A DNA stretch of 64,000 nucleotides. Origin: Bacteriovoracia bacterium (GTDB taxonomy: Bacteria > Bdellovibrionota > Bacteriovoracia > Bacteriovoracales > Bacteriovoracaceae). The stretch spans positions 1 through 64,000 of the forward strand of contig JBKHVI010000010.1 of NCBI GenBank assembly GCA_046570105.1. The letters are read 5' to 3'. The notes beneath the pieces are model-generated. The model searched no databases. It was not told where the DNA came from and saw only the letters and a list, made by a program, of their open reading frames with translations. Both the position numbers and the translations under genes were made by a program. Below, piece after piece: positions 29,365 through 37,126 of this stretch (within the stretch, counting starts at the first letter, position 1; every line of letters starts with the position of its first letter).

Positions 29365-30297
29365 ATGGACGTCCGCCCTGTCATTATCATTGGAACTGGC
29401 CCTGCCGGTTTAACTGCTGCCATTTACACTGCTCGTGCCACCATGAAACCTCTCGTTCTTGAAGGCCATGAACCTGGTGGTCAACTCACACTCACGACTG
29501 AAGTCGAAAACTTTCCTGGTTTCGCTGATGGTGTGATGGGCCCTGAGTTAATGAGCACCATGAAAAAACAGGCCGCCCGCTTTGGTGCTGAATTTCATCC
29601 AGTACTCGCCACTGAAGTGGATCTTTCCAAGCGTCCTTTCAAAGTTGTGACTGACAAAGGTGTCACTCACTATGCGCAGACTTTGATCATCTCAACTGGC
29701 GCCTCAGCTAAATTCATGGGTCTGCCGAAAGAAAAAGAACTCACCGGCCGCGGCGTTTCGACCTGTGCGACTTGTGATGGTTTTTTCTATCGCAATAAAA
29801 TTGTTCACGTCGTAGGGGGTGGTGACACTGCTATGGAAGACGCGACATTCTTAACTAAGTTTGCCGAAAAAGTTTATATTGTTCATCGCCGCGACACGCT
29901 TCGTGCTTCAAAGCCGATGCAAGAGCGCGCTTTCAAAAATCCTAAGATTGAATTCGTGTGGGATTCTGAAGTTGTGGAAATTCTCGATGATCAATCAGGT
30001 GTTACTGGCATCAAAGTAAAAAATCTTAAAACTGGTGCAGTCACGGAGAGAAAAACCGACGGTCTCTTCTACGGCATCGGCCATACGCCCAACACCGGTT
30101 TCCTTAAAGGCCAATTGAAAGTTGATGAACACGGATTTATTCAAACTCATGACGGCCCAGAAACGAATGTGCCTGGCGTGTTTGCCTGTGGTGACGTGCA
30201 AGATTCCTACTATCGCCAGGCGATCACAGCAGCAGGTTCTGGTTGCCAAGCAGCGATCAAAGCGGAACGTTGGTTAGAGAGTAACGGCGGCCATTAA
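29365..30297 (+). CDS. trxB: Thioredoxin-disulfide reductase
   Basis: GTGPAGLTAA, GGQLTLTTEVENFPG, CATCDG, VGGGDTA, HRRD, ACGDV...QAITAAGSG; SD AAGGAG. Confidence 0.97.
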   Translation: MDVRPVIIIGTGPAGLTAAIYTARATMKPLVLEGHEPGGQLTLTTEVENFPGFADGVMGPELMSTMKKQAARFGAEFHPVLATEVDLSKRPFKVVTDKGVTHYAQTLIISTGASAKFMGLPKEKELTGRGVSTCATCDGFFYRNKIVHVVGGGDTAMEDATFLTKFAEKVYIVHRRDTLRASKPMQERAFKNPKIEFVWDSEVVEILDDQSGVTGIKVKNLKTGAVTERKTDGLFYGIGHTPNTGFLKGQLKVDEHGFIQTHDGPETNVPGVFACGDVQDSYYRQAITAAGSGCQAAIKAERWLESNGGH

Positions 30298-30318
30298 GTT
30301 ACGGGTTTTGTACAAAAC

Positions 30319-30347
30319 TTGCTTCGCATTTGAAAAACTGTTAGCCT
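30319..30347 (+). promoter_or_regulatory. Promoter candidate for an antisense RNA to the small peptide ORF
   Basis: TTGCTT-N17-TAGCCT with extended -10 TG (30339-30340); no convincing + strand gene downstream. Confidence 0.4.
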
Positions 30348-30350
30348 TTA

Positions 30351-30390
30351 AAAAGTCAAAGGGTGGGAGTGTGCTCGATACACACCCCCC
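30351..30390 (-). terminator. Terminator-like hairpin 3' of the small peptide ORF
   Basis: Minus strand GGGGGGTGTG-TATCGAG-CACACTCCCACCC followed by TTTGACTTTT. Confidence 0.55.
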
Positions 30391-30395
30391 AAAGC

Positions 30396-30476
30396 CTATT
30401 TGGTGAGATCAAGTATGACAGCTAAAAGCTGCAAGACTAATCCCACCAGGGTCAGCACCCCAATGACGTCATCCAT
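30396..30476 (-). CDS. 26-aa hydrophobic peptide, TisB-like candidate type I toxin
   Basis: Hand translation MDDVIGVLTLVGLVLQLLAVILDLTK; AAGG 7 nt upstream of the ATG; below the ORF-track cutoff; hairpin downstream. Confidence 0.65.
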   Translation of the reverse strand: MDDVIGVLTLVGLVLQLLAVILDLTK

Positions 30477-30566
30477 AACATTGCCTTTGTTACAAGGCCT
30501 CCCTTCATTGGGAGGTCATGGATGATTATTGGTGGTGTATCTTGCAGGAGTAATTGTTGGCGGAAA

Positions 30567-30723
30567 TCAAATTCGCCCGTCTCATCCTGGCGCATAGACC
30601 AGTTGAAACCTAAATACTTATGCCAGGATGAATCAACTCACAAAAATAGAAAGCTTAAGGCGTCCTCAAAACGTTTTATAATTAAAGTAAAATTTAAGCT
30701 TCGGACTTCACGGGCGAATTTGA
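30567..30723. ncRNA. Structured element closed by a perfect 14-bp inverted repeat (candidate toxin 5' UTR domain or sRNA)
   Basis: TCAAATTCGCCCGT (30567-30580) / ACGGGCGAATTTGA (30710-30723) enclose the stems TCATCCTGGC/GCCAGGATGA and AAGCTTAA/TTAAGCTT. Confidence 0.5.
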
Positions 30724-30727
30724 ATCT

Positions 30728-31294
30728 CTATTTGCAAGTCTTTTTCAAAACATCATGTGCTTTTTGAATCAGAAGATAATTTTCATGAATGCGCTTCTCT
30801 AAGCGCTTTTTCGTTTTTGCATCAAAATCATTTAATTGAAAACTATCCGGATGCATCTCTTTGGCGCGTGTTTTAAATGCTTTCTTTAAATCTTCAGCAT
30901 TGATCACATTTTTAAGACCAAGAATTCTTAAGTAAAACTGCTCTTCTGTTTCTTGTCCCAAACGTTTTGGATCGAACAGATAAACACGCTGAAGGATTTT
31001 TTTCTTCTCAAGTTCTTTGGGATCAGTTGTTTCTGCTAAAAGCCCTGCGGTTTTGTCCTCGGATTTTTCTTTGAAATCTTTGGGAGCCATGGCCTTCCCA
31101 CTGGCCCTCCCCTTACCTTGAGTCATCAAGCGTTCTTCTTTTTCGATCAGCTCATCGAGAGTTAAATCACGCTCACGTTTGCGACCGAACAGGTACTGCT
31201 CAAGCCAAGCGAAAAGAGATTTGGCCATAATGGCCCCGGCCAGCACAACCGCCAGGCTAATCGCCGCATAGATGATGATTTGCTTTTTATCCAT
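30728..31294 (-). CDS. Membrane-anchored J-domain (DnaJ-like) protein
   Basis: N-terminal TM; C-terminal YLRILGL...LKKAFKTRAKEMHPD...IQKAHDVL. Confidence 0.85.
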   Translation of the reverse strand: MDKKQIIIYAAISLAVVLAGAIMAKSLFAWLEQYLFGRKRERDLTLDELIEKEERLMTQGKGRASGKAMAPKDFKEKSEDKTAGLLAETTDPKELEKKKILQRVYLFDPKRLGQETEEQFYLRILGLKNVINAEDLKKAFKTRAKEMHPDSFQLNDFDAKTKKRLEKRIHENYLLIQKAHDVLKKTCK

Positions 31295-32955: not shown

Positions 32956-32983
32956 TTATCGGCGGCCCTTGGCTAAAACTTGA
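32956..32983 (-). promoter_or_regulatory. Sigma-28-type promoter candidate
   Basis: Minus strand TCAAG-N15-GCCGATAA (perfect -10), 7 nt before ATG 32948. Confidence 0.55.
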
Positions 32984-33809
32984 GCACTCCGCTCGGAACG
33001 TTTTTTAAGCGGTATCCTAGGAAATAACCCCCTCCACCCGCACCACAGAGCTTTAAAGCAAACTCGCCGCTTGCTAGCCCCTGCTGCCAGACCGTCTTCA
33101 CGCTGGCAGGAATCATCTCATCAAAGGCCTTCAGTTCTAAGGTCGAGAGCGCTCGCATCGTTTGCCCCATCAGAGCTTCATCCAAATGCTCGTAGCATTC
33201 AATGGCTTCGCTTACCAGGGCATCGAGATACTCCATGGTGGCGGCAAATTCAGGATCTTCGGTTTTCTTTTTATAAAGCGCCACGAGCGGTGCTGAGTAG
33301 CGGGCGACACCAGAATCATAGAGAAACCAGCGATCGAGTTTCTGCCACGTTTCTACCGGCATCACGGCGACTTCAGGATCATGGGCCCCTTTAAGCAGCA
33401 AAGGCTTCCCGACCCAAGAAACCAAAGGATCCACACCTGAGCTCTGGCCGTGGTAACAAGATTCCAGGGCAGCTAAGCGTGCGCGCACTTCAGTTAGACT
33501 CCAATCTCTTACGGGTCCATAACTTGCCAAGAGTCCGGCCACCAGAGCGCCCGAACTTCCCAGTCCCTTTCCTTGAGGGATGGTGGAAACAAATCCACCA
33601 CCGTTTTGCAGATCATGCTGCAAGCGTTGAATATCAATTTCAAGTTCCGGATGAGCACCTAAAAAACGCAACAGTGGATTCCAGTCTATCGCCGGTGCTC
33701 CTCTGCCCCAATGTCCTTTGAAATTATCAAAAGGGATAGCGAGTGCCTGTCCGCCGCGAATGACAGTGTATTCACCGAAGAGAAGAATTTTGGCGCTAAA
33801 AGTTTTCAA
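32973..33809 (-). CDS. mvk: Mevalonate kinase (GHMP family)
   Basis: AKILLFGEY, IPQGKGLGSSGA, HGQSSGVD, KLCGAGGGG; in the mevalonate cluster. Confidence 0.8.
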   Translation of the reverse strand: MKTFSAKILLFGEYTVIRGGQALAIPFDNFKGHWGRGAPAIDWNPLLRFLGAHPELEIDIQRLQHDLQNGGGFVSTIPQGKGLGSSGALVAGLLASYGPVRDWSLTEVRARLAALESCYHGQSSGVDPLVSWVGKPLLLKGAHDPEVAVMPVETWQKLDRWFLYDSGVARYSAPLVALYKKKTEDPEFAATMEYLDALVSEAIECYEHLDEALMGQTMRALSTLELKAFDEMIPASVKTVWQQGLASGEFALKLCGAGGGGYFLGYRLKNVPSGVLKF

Positions 33810-34852
33810 ACCGGCCCCGTTCCGAGGCGATCCCAGATGACACCGGCACCCTTCTCGGTCAGACGAAGAAGCTCGTGCCTAACGAAGGCCTCGACTTTAA
33901 CGTGGGCCTCTTCAGGATAGATCAAATGAATATTTGGACCAGCATCGATGGTGAAATAAACCGGCACCTTCGAAGCTTCACGGAAAAGTCGAACCAGACG
34001 GATAATTTCAAGAGATCCTGGTTCAAGCAAAATAAATCCAGGATGGCCCGTCATCATGAGAGCATGAAGAGCTAAGGCATCGGCCTCCATAATGTCGCCG
34101 GCCTTCTGCCAATCACCTGCTTTAAGTGCAGAGAGTGTTTCATTGTAATGAAGATTCGCTTGCTGAGTGCGAGCGGCGGCATAAGGATGGGCCAACATGT
34201 GTGAGTGACCCTGACGAGAAGAGACTTCTTTCTCTTTTGACGACACAATTAAAATACAGTCACGGGTTTGTTTAAAGTTGTTGTGAATCTCGACGACTTC
34301 AGTGGCGTAAAGATCAGACGCTTCGGCCAATCTTCCCGTCTCACCCCAGCTAACAAATCCACCCATTAAAGAGCGGCAAGCTGAACCTGAACCTAAGCGA
34401 GCAAGACTTCCCACCGCTTTCATATCCAGTTCACTGTGACTGGCCTGTGAGAGCAAGCGGCCAAGTAACATCGCTAAAGCCGCTTGCGATGAAGCACTTG
34501 AGGCAATGCCTGAAGAGTGAGGAAAAGTATTTCGTGATTCAATCTTGTAATGATAGCGGCCTAGCAGGGGCAGATCTTTTGCCAGAGAAGCTAAGTAGCT
34601 TTCAATCTTTTTACCAAAGGCCTCACTGGCATTGCCTTCAAATATCAGCTCCACTTTCAAGTGGTCTGCAGGTGTAGCGATTAATTTTGTATGAGTGACG
34701 CTTTCTTTGAGAGTCAGACTCAATGAGGGATTGGCCGGTAATTGATGGCCTTTCTTTCCCCAATATTTTACCCAGGCGATATTGGCGGGAGCGGAAATTT
34801 CTGATTGAAATTCGATTGCGTGAGTGGCGGCAATCCAACTTTTAGGGAACAT
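33806..34852 (-). CDS. mvaD: Diphosphomevalonate decarboxylase
   Basis: APANIAWVKYWGK, NTFPHSSGIASSAS, ARLGSGSACRS, TIDAGPNIH; start at ATG 34852. Confidence 0.92.
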   Translation of the reverse strand: MFPKSWIAATHAIEFQSEISAPANIAWVKYWGKKGHQLPANPSLSLTLKESVTHTKLIATPADHLKVELIFEGNASEAFGKKIESYLASLAKDLPLLGRYHYKIESRNTFPHSSGIASSASSQAALAMLLGRLLSQASHSELDMKAVGSLARLGSGSACRSLMGGFVSWGETGRLAEASDLYATEVVEIHNNFKQTRDCILIVSSKEKEVSSRQGHSHMLAHPYAAARTQQANLHYNETLSALKAGDWQKAGDIMEADALALHALMMTGHPGFILLEPGSLEIIRLVRLFREASKVPVYFTIDAGPNIHLIYPEEAHVKVEAFVRHELLRLTEKGAGVIWDRLGTGPV

Positions 34853-35801
34853 AGCGAAGGTCCTCGTGAGGAGCACAGATGATTTCCTTAAAGGCAATCA
34901 TGGTCGAGAGTCCCTTCGATTGGAAATATTCTCGGGTATCATCCATTGAGCGCTCAGATGTGACCAAGGCAAAATCGCCTCCCCAGGCACCCAGAGATTT
35001 CACGCTTCCCCAGTAATCACTAAAGAGCTCTTCTTTAACGGTCGCAAGCTTCAAGGCCTTACCCACCAATGCTTCATGTTCATTGATGACTCTTTCAAAA
35101 TGACGAAGATCACTCGCCACTGTCATTTCGCGAGTCAGAGATGTGATCATCTCTACTGGAGCTTTCCGCTCTTCCGGAGTGAGTGCTTTAAATTCTTTAA
35201 TGGCCTGTCGCGTATCACGCTTGTGACCGAGATAAACGAGGAATAACTGGTCTTGGCAGCGAGGCGCAAATGAGACGGGTTGCCAACGTGGGAGATGATC
35301 GACGAGTTGATAATGAATCGGCCCCATGGATTGAGCACAGGCAATATCATAGCCCGAGCCACCAAAGCTCTTCATCGCCAATTCAAAGGGAGAAACATAG
35401 GCCCATTGAGCGATATTATATAGCAGCGATGAAGAAGAGCCCAATCCCCATTCACGAGGAAACTCGAGTTTTGTCTCAACCGTAATATCCATCTCATCAC
35501 GCAAGAAATGCGGATTTTGACGACGCACTTGCTGAAGAATTTTTTTGAGATCTTCTGCGACTGTAGGATTATTTGTACTGAGCGCATCGAAATGCCAAAA
35601 ATCCATTTCAGCTTCAAACCAGCTGGCACCCTTATGATCCAATGCATGCCACTTCATTGTTGGCTGGTGAGAGTGACGATGTTTTACTTTTAAACTTTGT
35701 CCCACCGTCGTAGGAAGCGCGAGCGCCTGCGCTCCTTCAAGCACGAAGTATTCACCGGTCAGAAGAATCTTGCCATGGCCATAATACTGCTGATCGCGCA
35801 C
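34842..35801 (-). CDS. GYDIA-family GHMP kinase (probable phosphomevalonate kinase role)
   Basis: GKILLTGEY, WGLGSSS, GSGYDIACA, KSLGAWGGDF. Confidence 0.85.
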   Translation of the reverse strand: MRDQQYYGHGKILLTGEYFVLEGAQALALPTTVGQSLKVKHRHSHQPTMKWHALDHKGASWFEAEMDFWHFDALSTNNPTVAEDLKKILQQVRRQNPHFLRDEMDITVETKLEFPREWGLGSSSSLLYNIAQWAYVSPFELAMKSFGGSGYDIACAQSMGPIHYQLVDHLPRWQPVSFAPRCQDQLFLVYLGHKRDTRQAIKEFKALTPEERKAPVEMITSLTREMTVASDLRHFERVINEHEALVGKALKLATVKEELFSDYWGSVKSLGAWGGDFALVTSERSMDDTREYFQSKGLSTMIAFKEIICAPHEDLRYVP

Positions 35802-35809
35802 ATTGCTTC

Positions 35810-37126
35810 CTAGAGTGATGGGTTCGACTCAACCAGACTTCTTACCGCTGAGTAGGAAACCACTTTATCGGCGAAGTAAACTTGCGCCGATTGTTTTTGG
35901 GCCTCTGTTGCTCCTAACTGCTGCAAGATATTCAAAAGATGCAACTTCATATGCCCTTTTTGAATACCAGTTGTCACCAAAGATCGCACTGCGCCAAAGT
36001 TTTGCGCAAGTCCCACTGCCGCCGCTACTTGCATGAGCTCAGGAGCGCTTGGGCGACCGAGAATATCGAGAGAAATATTGGCGAGCGGGTGAAGATTCGT
36101 GAGCCCTCCCACCGTCCCTAGCGCCATAGGAAGCGTGAGTGAGAACTTAAAGCGCTCACGCTCAAGCGTACATGTTGAGAGCGAGCGATACTGGCCATCG
36201 TTGGCGGCCCAAGCATGGGCACAGGCCTCAATGGCACGGAAGTCATTACCGGTCGCTAGAATCACCGAATCAATGCCATTCATGATGCCTTTATTATGAG
36301 TCACGGCACGTGAACGGTCCACGCGAGCAATCTCTACTCCAGTATGAAAACGACGCGCAAAAGTTTGTGCATCCATGCCTCCAGCAAAAACACCCAAATC
36401 TTCAATTGGACATTCCACTGATACTTCAACCGCACAGTCGGGCGTGAAGTTGGAGAGAATGCACATAATCACTTCAGCAATGCGCTCATCGGCCGGAAGA
36501 TTTGATGCTTCAAGCTTCGCCTGAAACTGGCGCGCCATCTCTTCTAAAATTGAATTGATAAAATTGGCACCCATAGCATCACAGGTTTCAAATTCCATCT
36601 TAAGCTGCCAGTAATCGGCCAGCTCACTGGTGCGATCAACCAGCTCCATTCCGAGAATACCACCGCCACGTTTTTGCATGTTAACGGCAAGACTGGCGAC
36701 ACTTTCTAAAAGTGCCGGACGGGCATCATTGAAGAATTTTACTAAGCGAGACTTATCTCCACGCCACATAAAATGAACTTGGCCCACTTTTTTAGTTGAG
36801 AGAACGCGGGCCTTAAAACCACCACGCTCAGACCAAAATTTTGCTGATAAAGAAGCTGCTGCGACAACAGAGCTCTCTTCAATCACCATCGGCACGCAAT
36901 AAGTTTTGCCGTTGATAAGAAAGTTAGGAGCGACGCCAAAAGGCAGATAGTAGTTCGTCAGAGTATTTTCAGCAAACTCATCAAAACGCGCCTGAATCTT
37001 TTCACTTGGATTCCAAAAGCGTGTCATCTCAGTAATTTCCTGAGCGGTCTTTCCTTCAAACTGACTGCTAAGCCAATTGATCTTTTCAGTTTTACTCATT
37101 TTAGAAAAACCAGAAACCGTTTTCAT
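35810..37126 (-). CDS. mvaA: Class II HMG-CoA reductase
   Basis: PMVIEESSVVAA, TCDAMGANFIN, THNKGIMNG, GNDFRAIEA, GIQKGHM. Confidence 0.93.
   Translation of the reverse strand: MKTVSGFSKMSKTEKINWLSSQFEGKTAQEITEMTRFWNPSEKIQARFDEFAENTLTNYYLPFGVAPNFLINGKTYCVPMVIEESSVVAAASLSAKFWSERGGFKARVLSTKKVGQVHFMWRGDKSRLVKFFNDARPALLESVASLAVNMQKRGGGILGMELVDRTSELADYWQLKMEFETCDAMGANFINSILEEMARQFQAKLEASNLPADERIAEVIMCILSNFTPDCAVEVSVECPIEDLGVFAGGMDAQTFARRFHTGVEIARVDRSRAVTHNKGIMNGIDSVILATGNDFRAIEACAHAWAANDGQYRSLSTCTLERERFKFSLTLPMALGTVGGLTNLHPLANISLDILGRPSAPELMQVAAAVGLAQNFGAVRSLVTTGIQKGHMKLHLLNILQQLGATEAQKQSAQVYFADKVVSYSAVRSLVESNPSL

Follow-up and report, generated by a model that had tools for sequence, protein, structure and literature searches.

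A peptide family of Bacteriovoracaceae with the gene and RNA anatomy of a putative type I toxin-antitoxin module

Does a short, unannotated reading frame in an intergenic gap of a Bacteriovoracia bacterium represent a real gene, and if so, is its product a type I toxin? The question was raised by an earlier note on the window, i.e., the whole stretch of 64,000 nt that was analyzed, in which a 26-codon reading frame was proposed to encode a TisB-like membrane peptide. The results described here give good support to the gene and to its RNA anatomy, whereas the toxin function is putative.

The reading frame (30396–30476, minus strand), an AAGG Shine-Dalgarno (SD) motif 7 nt before the ATG (30484–30487, minus strand) and a GC-rich hairpin after the TAG stop (30364–30391) were read here from the sequence just as the earlier note had described them. 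They lie in a 430-bp gap between trxB, which encodes a thioredoxin reductase-type oxidoreductase (29365–30297, plus strand, stop at 30297), and a gene for a J-domain protein (30728–31294, minus strand, stop at 30728). The latter has the same strand as the peptide gene and is a possible source of read-through transcription. The reading frame had been taken to be alone in the gap, but it shares this space with a structured leader, a predicted promoter for antisense transcription and one copy of a 160-bp repeat.

The peptide gene and its family

In a BLAST search of the gap against the host genome (G000), the 3′ hairpin had a weak match on contig C61, and from there three paralogues were found in the same genome, on contigs C61, C15 and C1. 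A peptide of similar appearance on contig C76 was rejected as a further paralogue, as it overlaps a long gene and has no match to the DNA model. With a profile of six sequences (E ≤ 0.05), homologues were found in 66 of 237 genomes of Bacteriovoracaceae, comprising 12 of 69 genera and 37 of 145 high-quality genomes. Carrier genomes have one to nine matches with this profile, and up to ten overall, often in tandem, with a unit spacing of 315–362 bp in most arrays. A profile of 49 sequences was applied to 400 genomes of the phylum and matched 18 of 100 in the same family and none of 300 in other families. The earlier note had called for such a search across Bdellovibrionota and had named a lack of conservation in relatives among the results that would speak against its proposal; the reading frame turned out to be conserved. 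The three paralogues and the homologues across the family show that the reading frame is more than a chance occurrence. The family members are 24–27 aa long, and the overlooked 26-aa gene at 30396–30476 is real. A lineage-restricted family with tandem or multiple copies is one of the traits by which the type I class is recognized, and tandem arrays are described as a type I hallmark in the available part of PMC2887945.

A scan for the leader and start pattern covered 33 of the 64 parts of the GTDB species set, i.e., about half of it, and gave 119 loci, 42 of which were confirmed by the DNA model. The titles of 38 of these 42 loci read Bacteriovoracaceae, Halobacteriovoraceae, Bacteriovoracales, Bacteriovoracia or (Halo)bacteriovorax, and the remaining titles were "Proteobacteria bacterium" (three) and "Oligoflexia" (one). 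For the statistics, part of the matches was fetched, which resulted in 101 nhmmer hits. Removal of one duplicate, two intact copies with a mis-picked start, three opposite-strand echoes, one copy at a contig end, two halves of one copy whose leader is split by an IS481 element and four broken copies, with a frameshift, a lost stop, a changed ATG or a truncation, left 88 loci. Four more broken copies were found among the pattern loci.

The window peptide had no match to any model of Pfam and NCBIfam. When 49 members were used, nothing above threshold was found in Pfam, NCBIfam and PHROGs, and the same was true for the family in PDB sequences and for the 430-bp gap and 18 member loci in Rfam. 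Exact look-up of 10 family peptides among 15 billion catalogued proteins retrieved none of the 10, and plasmid and phage collections, for which one member served as query, gave no match. A pattern scan of IMG/VR led to six viral loci, none of which was a true member by the DNA model. As far as these sequence searches reach, the peptide family is restricted to the Bacteriovoracaceae, a single family of predators.

The variation of 85 unique ORFs was used to characterize selection. The codon-position entropy was 1.05, 0.54 and 1.52 bits, all 85 ORFs start with ATG, and indels comprise whole codons. The pooled pN/pS was 0.35, and pN was smaller than pS in 1099 of 1105 pairs with a divergence of at most 35%; these values are descriptive and not p-values, and, like the covariation figures below, they are inflated because the members were selected with a profile and the pairs are related. 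The shifted sense frames had pN/pS values of 0.71 (+1) and 2.34 (+2), and the +1 frame contains stops in 85 of 85 ORFs. For the three antisense frames, values of 1.00, 0.53 (the shadow frame, which has the wobble position in common) and 1.98 were obtained. The codon variation points to selection at the protein level; part of the conservation of the Q-L-A-V codons may be driven by the RNA (helix 3, see below). A conserved antisense protein was rejected, as an ATG-led ORF of at least 20 aa is present in only 32 of 86 loci. Only one antisense frame is mostly open, and this is the shadow that N-T-N codons are expected to cast.

The family consensus pattern is M-E-[ED]-x-I-R-V-L-x-L-x-I-L-x-L-Q-L. 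The GRAVY of the family peptides is 1.64 and the hydrophobic moment is 0.40, compared with 1.62 and 0.50 for TisB and a moment of 0.24 for transmembrane (TM) segments of the host. One helical face carries an acidic residue 2, R6 (65 of 71 peptides), T9 and Q16 (61 of 71), and the net charge is mostly 0 or negative. The window peptide has a net charge of −2 and a G in place of the usual R6, which is the case in 3 of 71 peptides. A small hydrophobic protein (20–60 aa) under coding selection, another trait of the type I class, is thus found here.

Next to no credence is given to a chance ORF or to the view that the ORF serves a gene downstream of it as a leader peptide or an attenuator. A short ORF that is followed by a GC-rich hairpin would be in agreement with such a role, but the conservation across 12 genera argues against chance. 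In addition, the orientation of the downstream gene is random (same strand at 34 loci, opposite strand at 47, none at 7), so that 47 of 81 loci with a neighbor have it on the opposite strand, and the neighbors are unrelated.

Predicted mRNA fold, antisense promoter and upstream box

The region of the window folds with a z-score of −6.0, and both the SD motif and the AUG are paired. All elements of the fold are given here on the minus strand. The SD motif is predicted to be sequestered in hairpin H3 (30483–30498; CCTT...AAGG, a motif that is found across members). Hairpin H2 (30498–30515) has a conserved AATGAA loop (55 of 88 loci) and a covarying stem, in which 350 of 355 cells are Watson-Crick pairs. 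The anti-AUG arm H1 (30515–30526) is predicted to pair with 30469–30479 over the start codon, and the 5′ end of the sense mRNA is probably located a few nucleotides upstream of H1. A long-range helix (helix 2) would pair codons 4–6 of the window copy (30459–30467) with the 3′ tail (30355–30363), and 8 of its 9 pairs are doubly changed among members. The same holds true for 5 of 5 pairs of a small hairpin within the ORF, over the Q-L-L-A codons (helix 3, 30419–30431), and for 7 of 7 pairs of the 3′ hairpin after the stop (H4, helix 4, 30364–30391). An upstream overlapping ORF that would start from the ATG in the H2 loop was rejected, as the loop varies to non-ATG and the frame varies.

RNAalifold was applied to a sequence-only alignment of 49 members and predicted the H2 leader hairpin, the Q-L-A-V codon hairpin, the 3′ hairpin and the helix between codons 4–7 and the tail. 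H1 and H3 stem from single folds and inspection by eye and are outside the covariation count. For the 26 pairs that were counted, 92.8% of the cells were paired, with 222 double changes and 24 doubly changed pairs; none of 500 shuffles was as high, and slid controls reached 40–56%. Opening of the region from −15 to +8 was calculated to cost 15.6 ± 4.3 kcal/mol (86 members) and 17.6 kcal/mol for the window copy, compared with 9.0 ± 3.6 kcal/mol for host starts (n = 300), 16 of which reach the family median. The available parts of PMC6733600 and PMC8594479 name occlusion of the SD motif and 5′-3′ pairing as characteristic of the mRNAs of type I toxins, and a covarying fold of this kind, with an occluded SD and AUG and 5′-3′ pairing, is predicted for the family.

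On the opposite strand, directly 3′ of the tail, the members share the motif TTGnnn-16/18-(TG)TAnAAT, which resembles a sigma70-type promoter. Its score, which is based on a hand-set consensus, was at least 7.5 in 61 of 85 loci, in contrast to 2 of 85 for the other strand and 2 of 85 for the upstream region. The hold-out set comprised 26 previously unused ORFs, 9 of which were retrieved from metagenomes with a coding-only pattern and some of which are close kin of training members; here, the antisense promoter was found in 21 of 24 cases, versus 1 of 24 for the other strand. In the window, the predicted promoter is TTGCTT-17-TAGCCT with a TG before the −10 element (30319–30347, plus strand), and its score of 7.2 is just below the 7.5 that most members reach. 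A strict promoter scanner gave no site in the 430-bp gap, and it was the looser consensus scoring that yielded 30319–30347. The predicted cis-antisense RNA would cover the whole ORF and the leader (30354–30540, plus strand), with its start placed from the promoter; no terminator was found for it.

A sigma70-type promoter for the sense RNA was not found (3.45 bits versus 4.19 bits for shuffles), and intrinsic terminators were scarce, both for the antisense RNA (9 of 84 loci) and the sense RNA (8 of 84). We therefore infer both RNA ends.

As the only clear promoter drives the opposite strand, and as this strand also folds well (z = −6.8), the selected product could be a structured RNA of the opposite strand, with the ORF as a by-product. 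This is judged to be very improbable. The three-base periodicity, the low pN/pS, the invariant ATG and the whole-codon indels argue against it, and folding favors the sense strand (the leader in 67 of 86 and the 3′ hairpin in 69 of 86 cases). Moreover, genera g4 and g15 show an overlap between the tail arm of the long-range helix and the predicted antisense −10 element and start, which suggests that this helix belongs to the sense RNA, on which alone it could form.

An unbiased search for gapped words revealed TTC-N6-GAA upstream of the modules in 33 of 67 cases, versus 7.5 expected (z = 8.7; null maximum 5.5). The word is part of a palindromic TTTCA-N5-GAAA box at −120 to −140. A box score above 10 was found for 48 of 87 loci and 6 of 892 host genes, with a matrix that was trained on these loci, and 17 of 26 hold-outs had a score above 7. 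Many loci have a degenerate TA 13–15 nt before H1, and thus the box may serve as an activator site that lies some 70 nt ahead of the transcription start.

The same box was also observed elsewhere in the host genome, about 80–100 nt before 7 of 8 genes for Y1 (IS200/RAYT-like) transposases, with scores of 5.5–18 (C72:5544, C33:17133, and on contigs C59, C14, C2, C8 and C62). In addition, a candidate LexA box of the family was found, a direct repeat TTACG(G/C)A-N4-TTACG(G/C)A that is located upstream of lexA and recA genes in 12 of 12 cases tested (G000:C3:17050–17110; C18 upstream of recA; L267–L271 and L276–L280). SOS control of the peptide was rejected, as a TTACGGA-type repeat is present at only 2 of 88 peptide loci, at the loosest setting of 3 mismatches.

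Genomic context and the state of the window copy

The neighboring genes differ from locus to locus, and no conserved partner gene is located nearby. Surface-polysaccharide genes account for about 16 of 102 scanned neighbors (142 found; own count), many of them from one genus. Modules lie in or beside surface-polysaccharide clusters, with glycosyltransferases, nucleotide-sugar epimerases and dehydrogenases, at L033, L035, L038, L043, L054, L057, L059, L066, L070, L076 and L099; these loci belong largely to one genus and are hence not independent.

Many small membrane peptides are regulators and not toxins. The peptide could accordingly be a real, antisense-controlled but non-toxic small membrane protein that regulates a membrane partner, e.g., a transporter, a kinase or a protease. 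The N-terminal M-E-[ED]-x-x-R-V-L and Q16 show more conservation than would be required for a simple leak, the common upstream box suggests programmed expression, and the net charge of mostly 0 or below would also fit. However, the lack of a conserved partner gene nearby speaks against a regulator, and up to 10 matches per genome, the tandem arrays, the patchy occurrence (66 of 237 genomes) and the multi-layer occlusion of SD and AUG fit a harmful product better. Therefore, we regard a regulatory role as unlikely.

In the nearest relative, G007, trxB and the J-domain gene are about 70 bp apart, without the module. Four other sequencing runs from two studies contain contigs that join 30297 to 30739, and the same four also contain contigs with the module. 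The occurrence of contigs with and without the module side by side indicates that it is a recent, polymorphic insert. An assembly chimera was rejected, as in one of these other runs, X2, a single contig spans the end of trxB, the module, the repeat and the end of the J-domain gene. Run X1 matches the window fully, but it may be the source of the window. The trxB alleles were compared over 30033–30297 of the window: the module-bearing contigs of X2 and X5 have an allele that is about 10% diverged, whereas the allele identical to that of the window joins a short module-free spacer in X2 and X4, which suggests recombination at the locus.

The copy of the 160-bp dispersed repeat was detected by BLAST of the gap (30567–30724, no strand assigned) and has terminal arms of 14 bp (30567–30580 and 30710–30723). 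The genome contains 35 copies, 32 of which are full (e.g., C8:67342, C44:11598 and C9:61689). The terminal stems of 5–19 bp differ among copies and remain complementary. Of the 31 copies with a known neighbor, 28 lie 3′ of a gene, on one fixed strand, and 23 are within 70 bp of the stop. The inner motif was found in 11 of 237 genomes of the family, and six repeat loci had no match in Rfam. In G000, only the window's copy touches a peptide module, and a partial copy lies beside only 1 of the 8 Y1 transposase genes. We read the repeat as a REPIN/MITE-like element that landed at the module by chance; alternatively, it may be a structured 3′-UTR RNA.

Several further observations concern repeats. 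The interior of the 160-bp repeat has a conserved inverted pair, AT-rich spacers of fixed length and a 4-bp GTCC/GGAC pair; by eye only, a crossing AAGC/GCTT pair (possible pseudoknot) and, at several copies, flanking direct repeats of 10–14 bp were seen. At L042:218–1481 (G007:C170), the SD hairpin of a module is interrupted by an IS481-family transposase (247 bits, cut-off 224) with a duplication of 6–7 bp, and the ends of the element carry the motif GGCGTCCTCA, which is also present in the 160-bp repeat. Short palindromes (AGGTGCCAGGT, AAAAGGTAC...GTACCTTTT) lie beside modules of other genera (L050, L053, L055, L058, L076, L077 and L097); they are absent from G000 and are possibly a lineage-specific REP. 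G000 contains nine copies of an exact repeat of at least 30 bp, with a word beginning GGTGGTGTAAGAAATC, likely ends of insertion sequences or an array. Also in the window, an apparent cluster of the mevalonate pathway (kinases, diphosphomevalonate decarboxylase and HMG-CoA reductase) was noticed at 32973–37126 (minus strand), by sequence appearance only.

The repeat begins 91 nt upstream of the ATG, and for this reason the window copy is devoid of the TTTCA-N5-GAAA box (score 0.5). Because the repeat occupies the place of the relatives' box, the window copy may be mis-regulated or silent. The family could thus be as described, and the window copy could be a decayed or silenced passenger with a displaced box and a drifted peptide. 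In agreement with this, the peptide has lost R6, and in a rough tree it has no close sister and a long terminal branch of 0.73. On the other hand, the ORF, the SD motif, the antisense promoter and each of the four helices have been preserved, and the upstream J-domain gene could supply read-through. The ORF did not differ among the matches listed for module-bearing contigs of the other runs, which may reflect recent spread only. A passenger is possible, but doubtful.

Putative function and comparison with known systems

The locus has the anatomy seen in toxin-antitoxin systems of type I, as judged from sequence features, with a layout like that of Ibs/Sib and a peptide like TisB or ZorO. The module probably works as a type I toxin-antitoxin pair that is conserved in Bacteriovoracaceae. 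The earlier view of a type I toxin-like membrane peptide is well supported by the coding signal, the SD/AUG fold, the 5′-3′ helix, the antisense promoter, the tandem and multiple copies and the patchiness, whereas its "TisB-like" holds as an analogy only.

The following mechanism is proposed. The peptide is predicted to be a single amphipathic membrane helix that would insert into the inner membrane and dissipate the membrane potential, and its E2/R6/T9/Q16 face may form dimers or narrow pores. For the toxin mRNA, a fold is predicted that covers the SD and the AUG of the same molecule. This mRNA would be made conditionally, from a weak promoter that is aided by a dimeric factor bound to the upstream box. 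The fully overlapping antisense RNA, from the predicted sigma70-type promoter 3′ of the stop, would be made constitutively and likely silences the toxin mRNA by driving duplex decay or by a translation block. Trimming of the 3′ end or refolding might free the ribosome binding site, as in aapA and hok. The payoff would probably be addiction or the stabilization of variable DNA, or growth arrest under stress. For the window copy, in which the repeat has replaced the box, transcripts would probably be read through from the J-domain gene, or the copy would be silent.

A more far-reaching version of this reading can also be formulated. It is a hybrid design of a TisB/ZorO-like helix, a Sib-like overlapping antitoxin and a codon/3′-tail lock, with transcription switched by a putative dimeric regulator. 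The peptides would then be effectors of a non-SOS stress or life-cycle program that depolarizes prey-starved attack-phase cells into dormancy while mobilizing transposases. This version is speculative, and we consider it improbable.

In full-text searches of the literature, no description of the peptide family was found at the level of the listings. In the available part of a 2025 article (PMC12390103), the type I systems listed come only from Proteobacteria, Firmicutes, Tenericutes and, newly, Cyanobacteria, with no Bdellovibrionota among them. In the available part of a genome survey from 2010 (PMC2887945), Bdellovibrio bacteriovorus HD100 is given zero known type I loci, and there is no entry for Bacteriovorax. 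If the toxin reading is true, the family would represent a new type I family in obligate predators that has been missed by gene callers, with more than 100 natural variants. It would be a ready means to test whether membrane toxins help predators to survive between prey or to retain variable DNA, such as surface-polysaccharide loci. In addition, a candidate regulon box (TTTCA-N5-GAAA) and a candidate LexA box for Bacteriovoracaceae have come to light.

The gap-free alignment to TisB that the earlier note had given for part of the peptide was found, with the TisB record, to hold over all 26 residues with 10 identities. The pairwise score of 37 is reached by shuffled TisB in 3 of 300 cases and by TM segments of the host in 3 of 534. 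The two ZorO-like peptides, i.e., Z3289/Z3290, which were identified by position in the O157:H7 record and are unannotated there, align to the window peptide as well as TisB does, with scores of 39 and 38, and the likeness is therefore not specific for TisB. TisB has a strip of alternating D5/K12/D22/K26 with Q19 (PMC8309996, available part). In the family, the position of D5 is acidic in 71 of 71 peptides and that of Q19 is Q in 61 of 71, whereas the K12 position is mostly T or I and the D22 position V or A. The earlier statement that the charges of TisB are not kept in position was therefore correct for K12, D22 and K26, but D5, Q19 and K29 have matches in a +3 register.

TisB was the most frequent match of the 49 members in both model libraries, Pfam and NCBIfam. 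Five of the 49 match TisB models, with 10.8–20 bits (best E 4e-4) versus a cut-off of 38 bits. When scored with the family HMM, both TisB and the ZorO-like peptides reach 5.8 bits, which is exceeded by 1 of 534 host TM segments, followed by ShoB (5.3), IbsC (3.2) and DinQ (−1.0), and the family minimum is 32.5 bits. Together with the matched D5 and Q19, the model matches could point to true but remote homology with TisB, ZorO or ShoB, in which case the peptide was acquired from gammaproteobacteria and rewired to another antitoxin layout. This appears decidedly unlikely, as the bit scores are far apart on both sides, the register of the model matches is 7 residues off the pairwise one, as helical periodicity would give, the E. 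coli type I loci have no DNA likeness to the family loci (best E 0.054), and a LexA box is lacking. The peptide is, on these scores, not a member of the TisB family, but by analogy it may work like TisB.

Compared with TisB/IstR-1 (PF13939, TIGR04459), the module shares the size, the hydrophobicity, the amphipathic helix, the N-terminal acidic residue and the mid-helix Gln of the peptide. It differs in the scores below the TIGR04459/PF13939 cut-off, the missing K12 and D22 and the lack of a LexA (SOS) box at the peptide loci. IstR-1 is encoded 5′ of tisB and does not overlap it (PMC8594479, available part), whereas here the predicted antisense promoter is located 3′ and its RNA would overlap the gene. 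Tandem units of 315–362 bp leave little room for a 5′ antitoxin gene, and IstR of Rfam had no match.

ZorO/OrzO, ShoB/OhsC and DinQ/AgrB also comprise Leu/Ile-rich helices of 26–29 aa and tandem copies. Their antitoxins are 5′ and non-overlapping, and they have long 5′ UTRs (PMC8594479, available part). That layout is not found here, the sequence likeness is faint, and DinQ does no better on the family HMM than its own shuffles (151 of 300).

AapA/IsoA of Helicobacter and hok/Sok combine local anti-SD hairpins with a long-distance helix that involves the 3′ end (PMC6733600, available part), and the same combination is predicted here. They were compared by mRNA folding; no Pfam or NCBIfam model for their peptides was matched by the 49 members. 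In contrast to these systems, the covarying helix of the family pairs the 3′ tail with codons 4–7 and not with the SD directly, and the predicted antisense RNA starts 3′ of the stop and not in the 5′ part.

The layout resembles that of Ibs/Sib (E. coli ibsC/SibC). IbsC differs with its 19 aa, the absence of a polar strip (moment 0.18) and a score on the family HMM that is not above its shuffles (47 of 300), and no Rfam match, no DNA likeness and no peptide homology were found. However, both have tandem or multi-copy loci and a small hydrophobic peptide, and the antisense RNA of Ibs/Sib covers the whole ORF, as is predicted for that of the present family. The start of SibC lies 3′ of the ibsC stop at a distance of about 39 nt, and for the antisense RNA predicted here the corresponding distance is about 42 nt.
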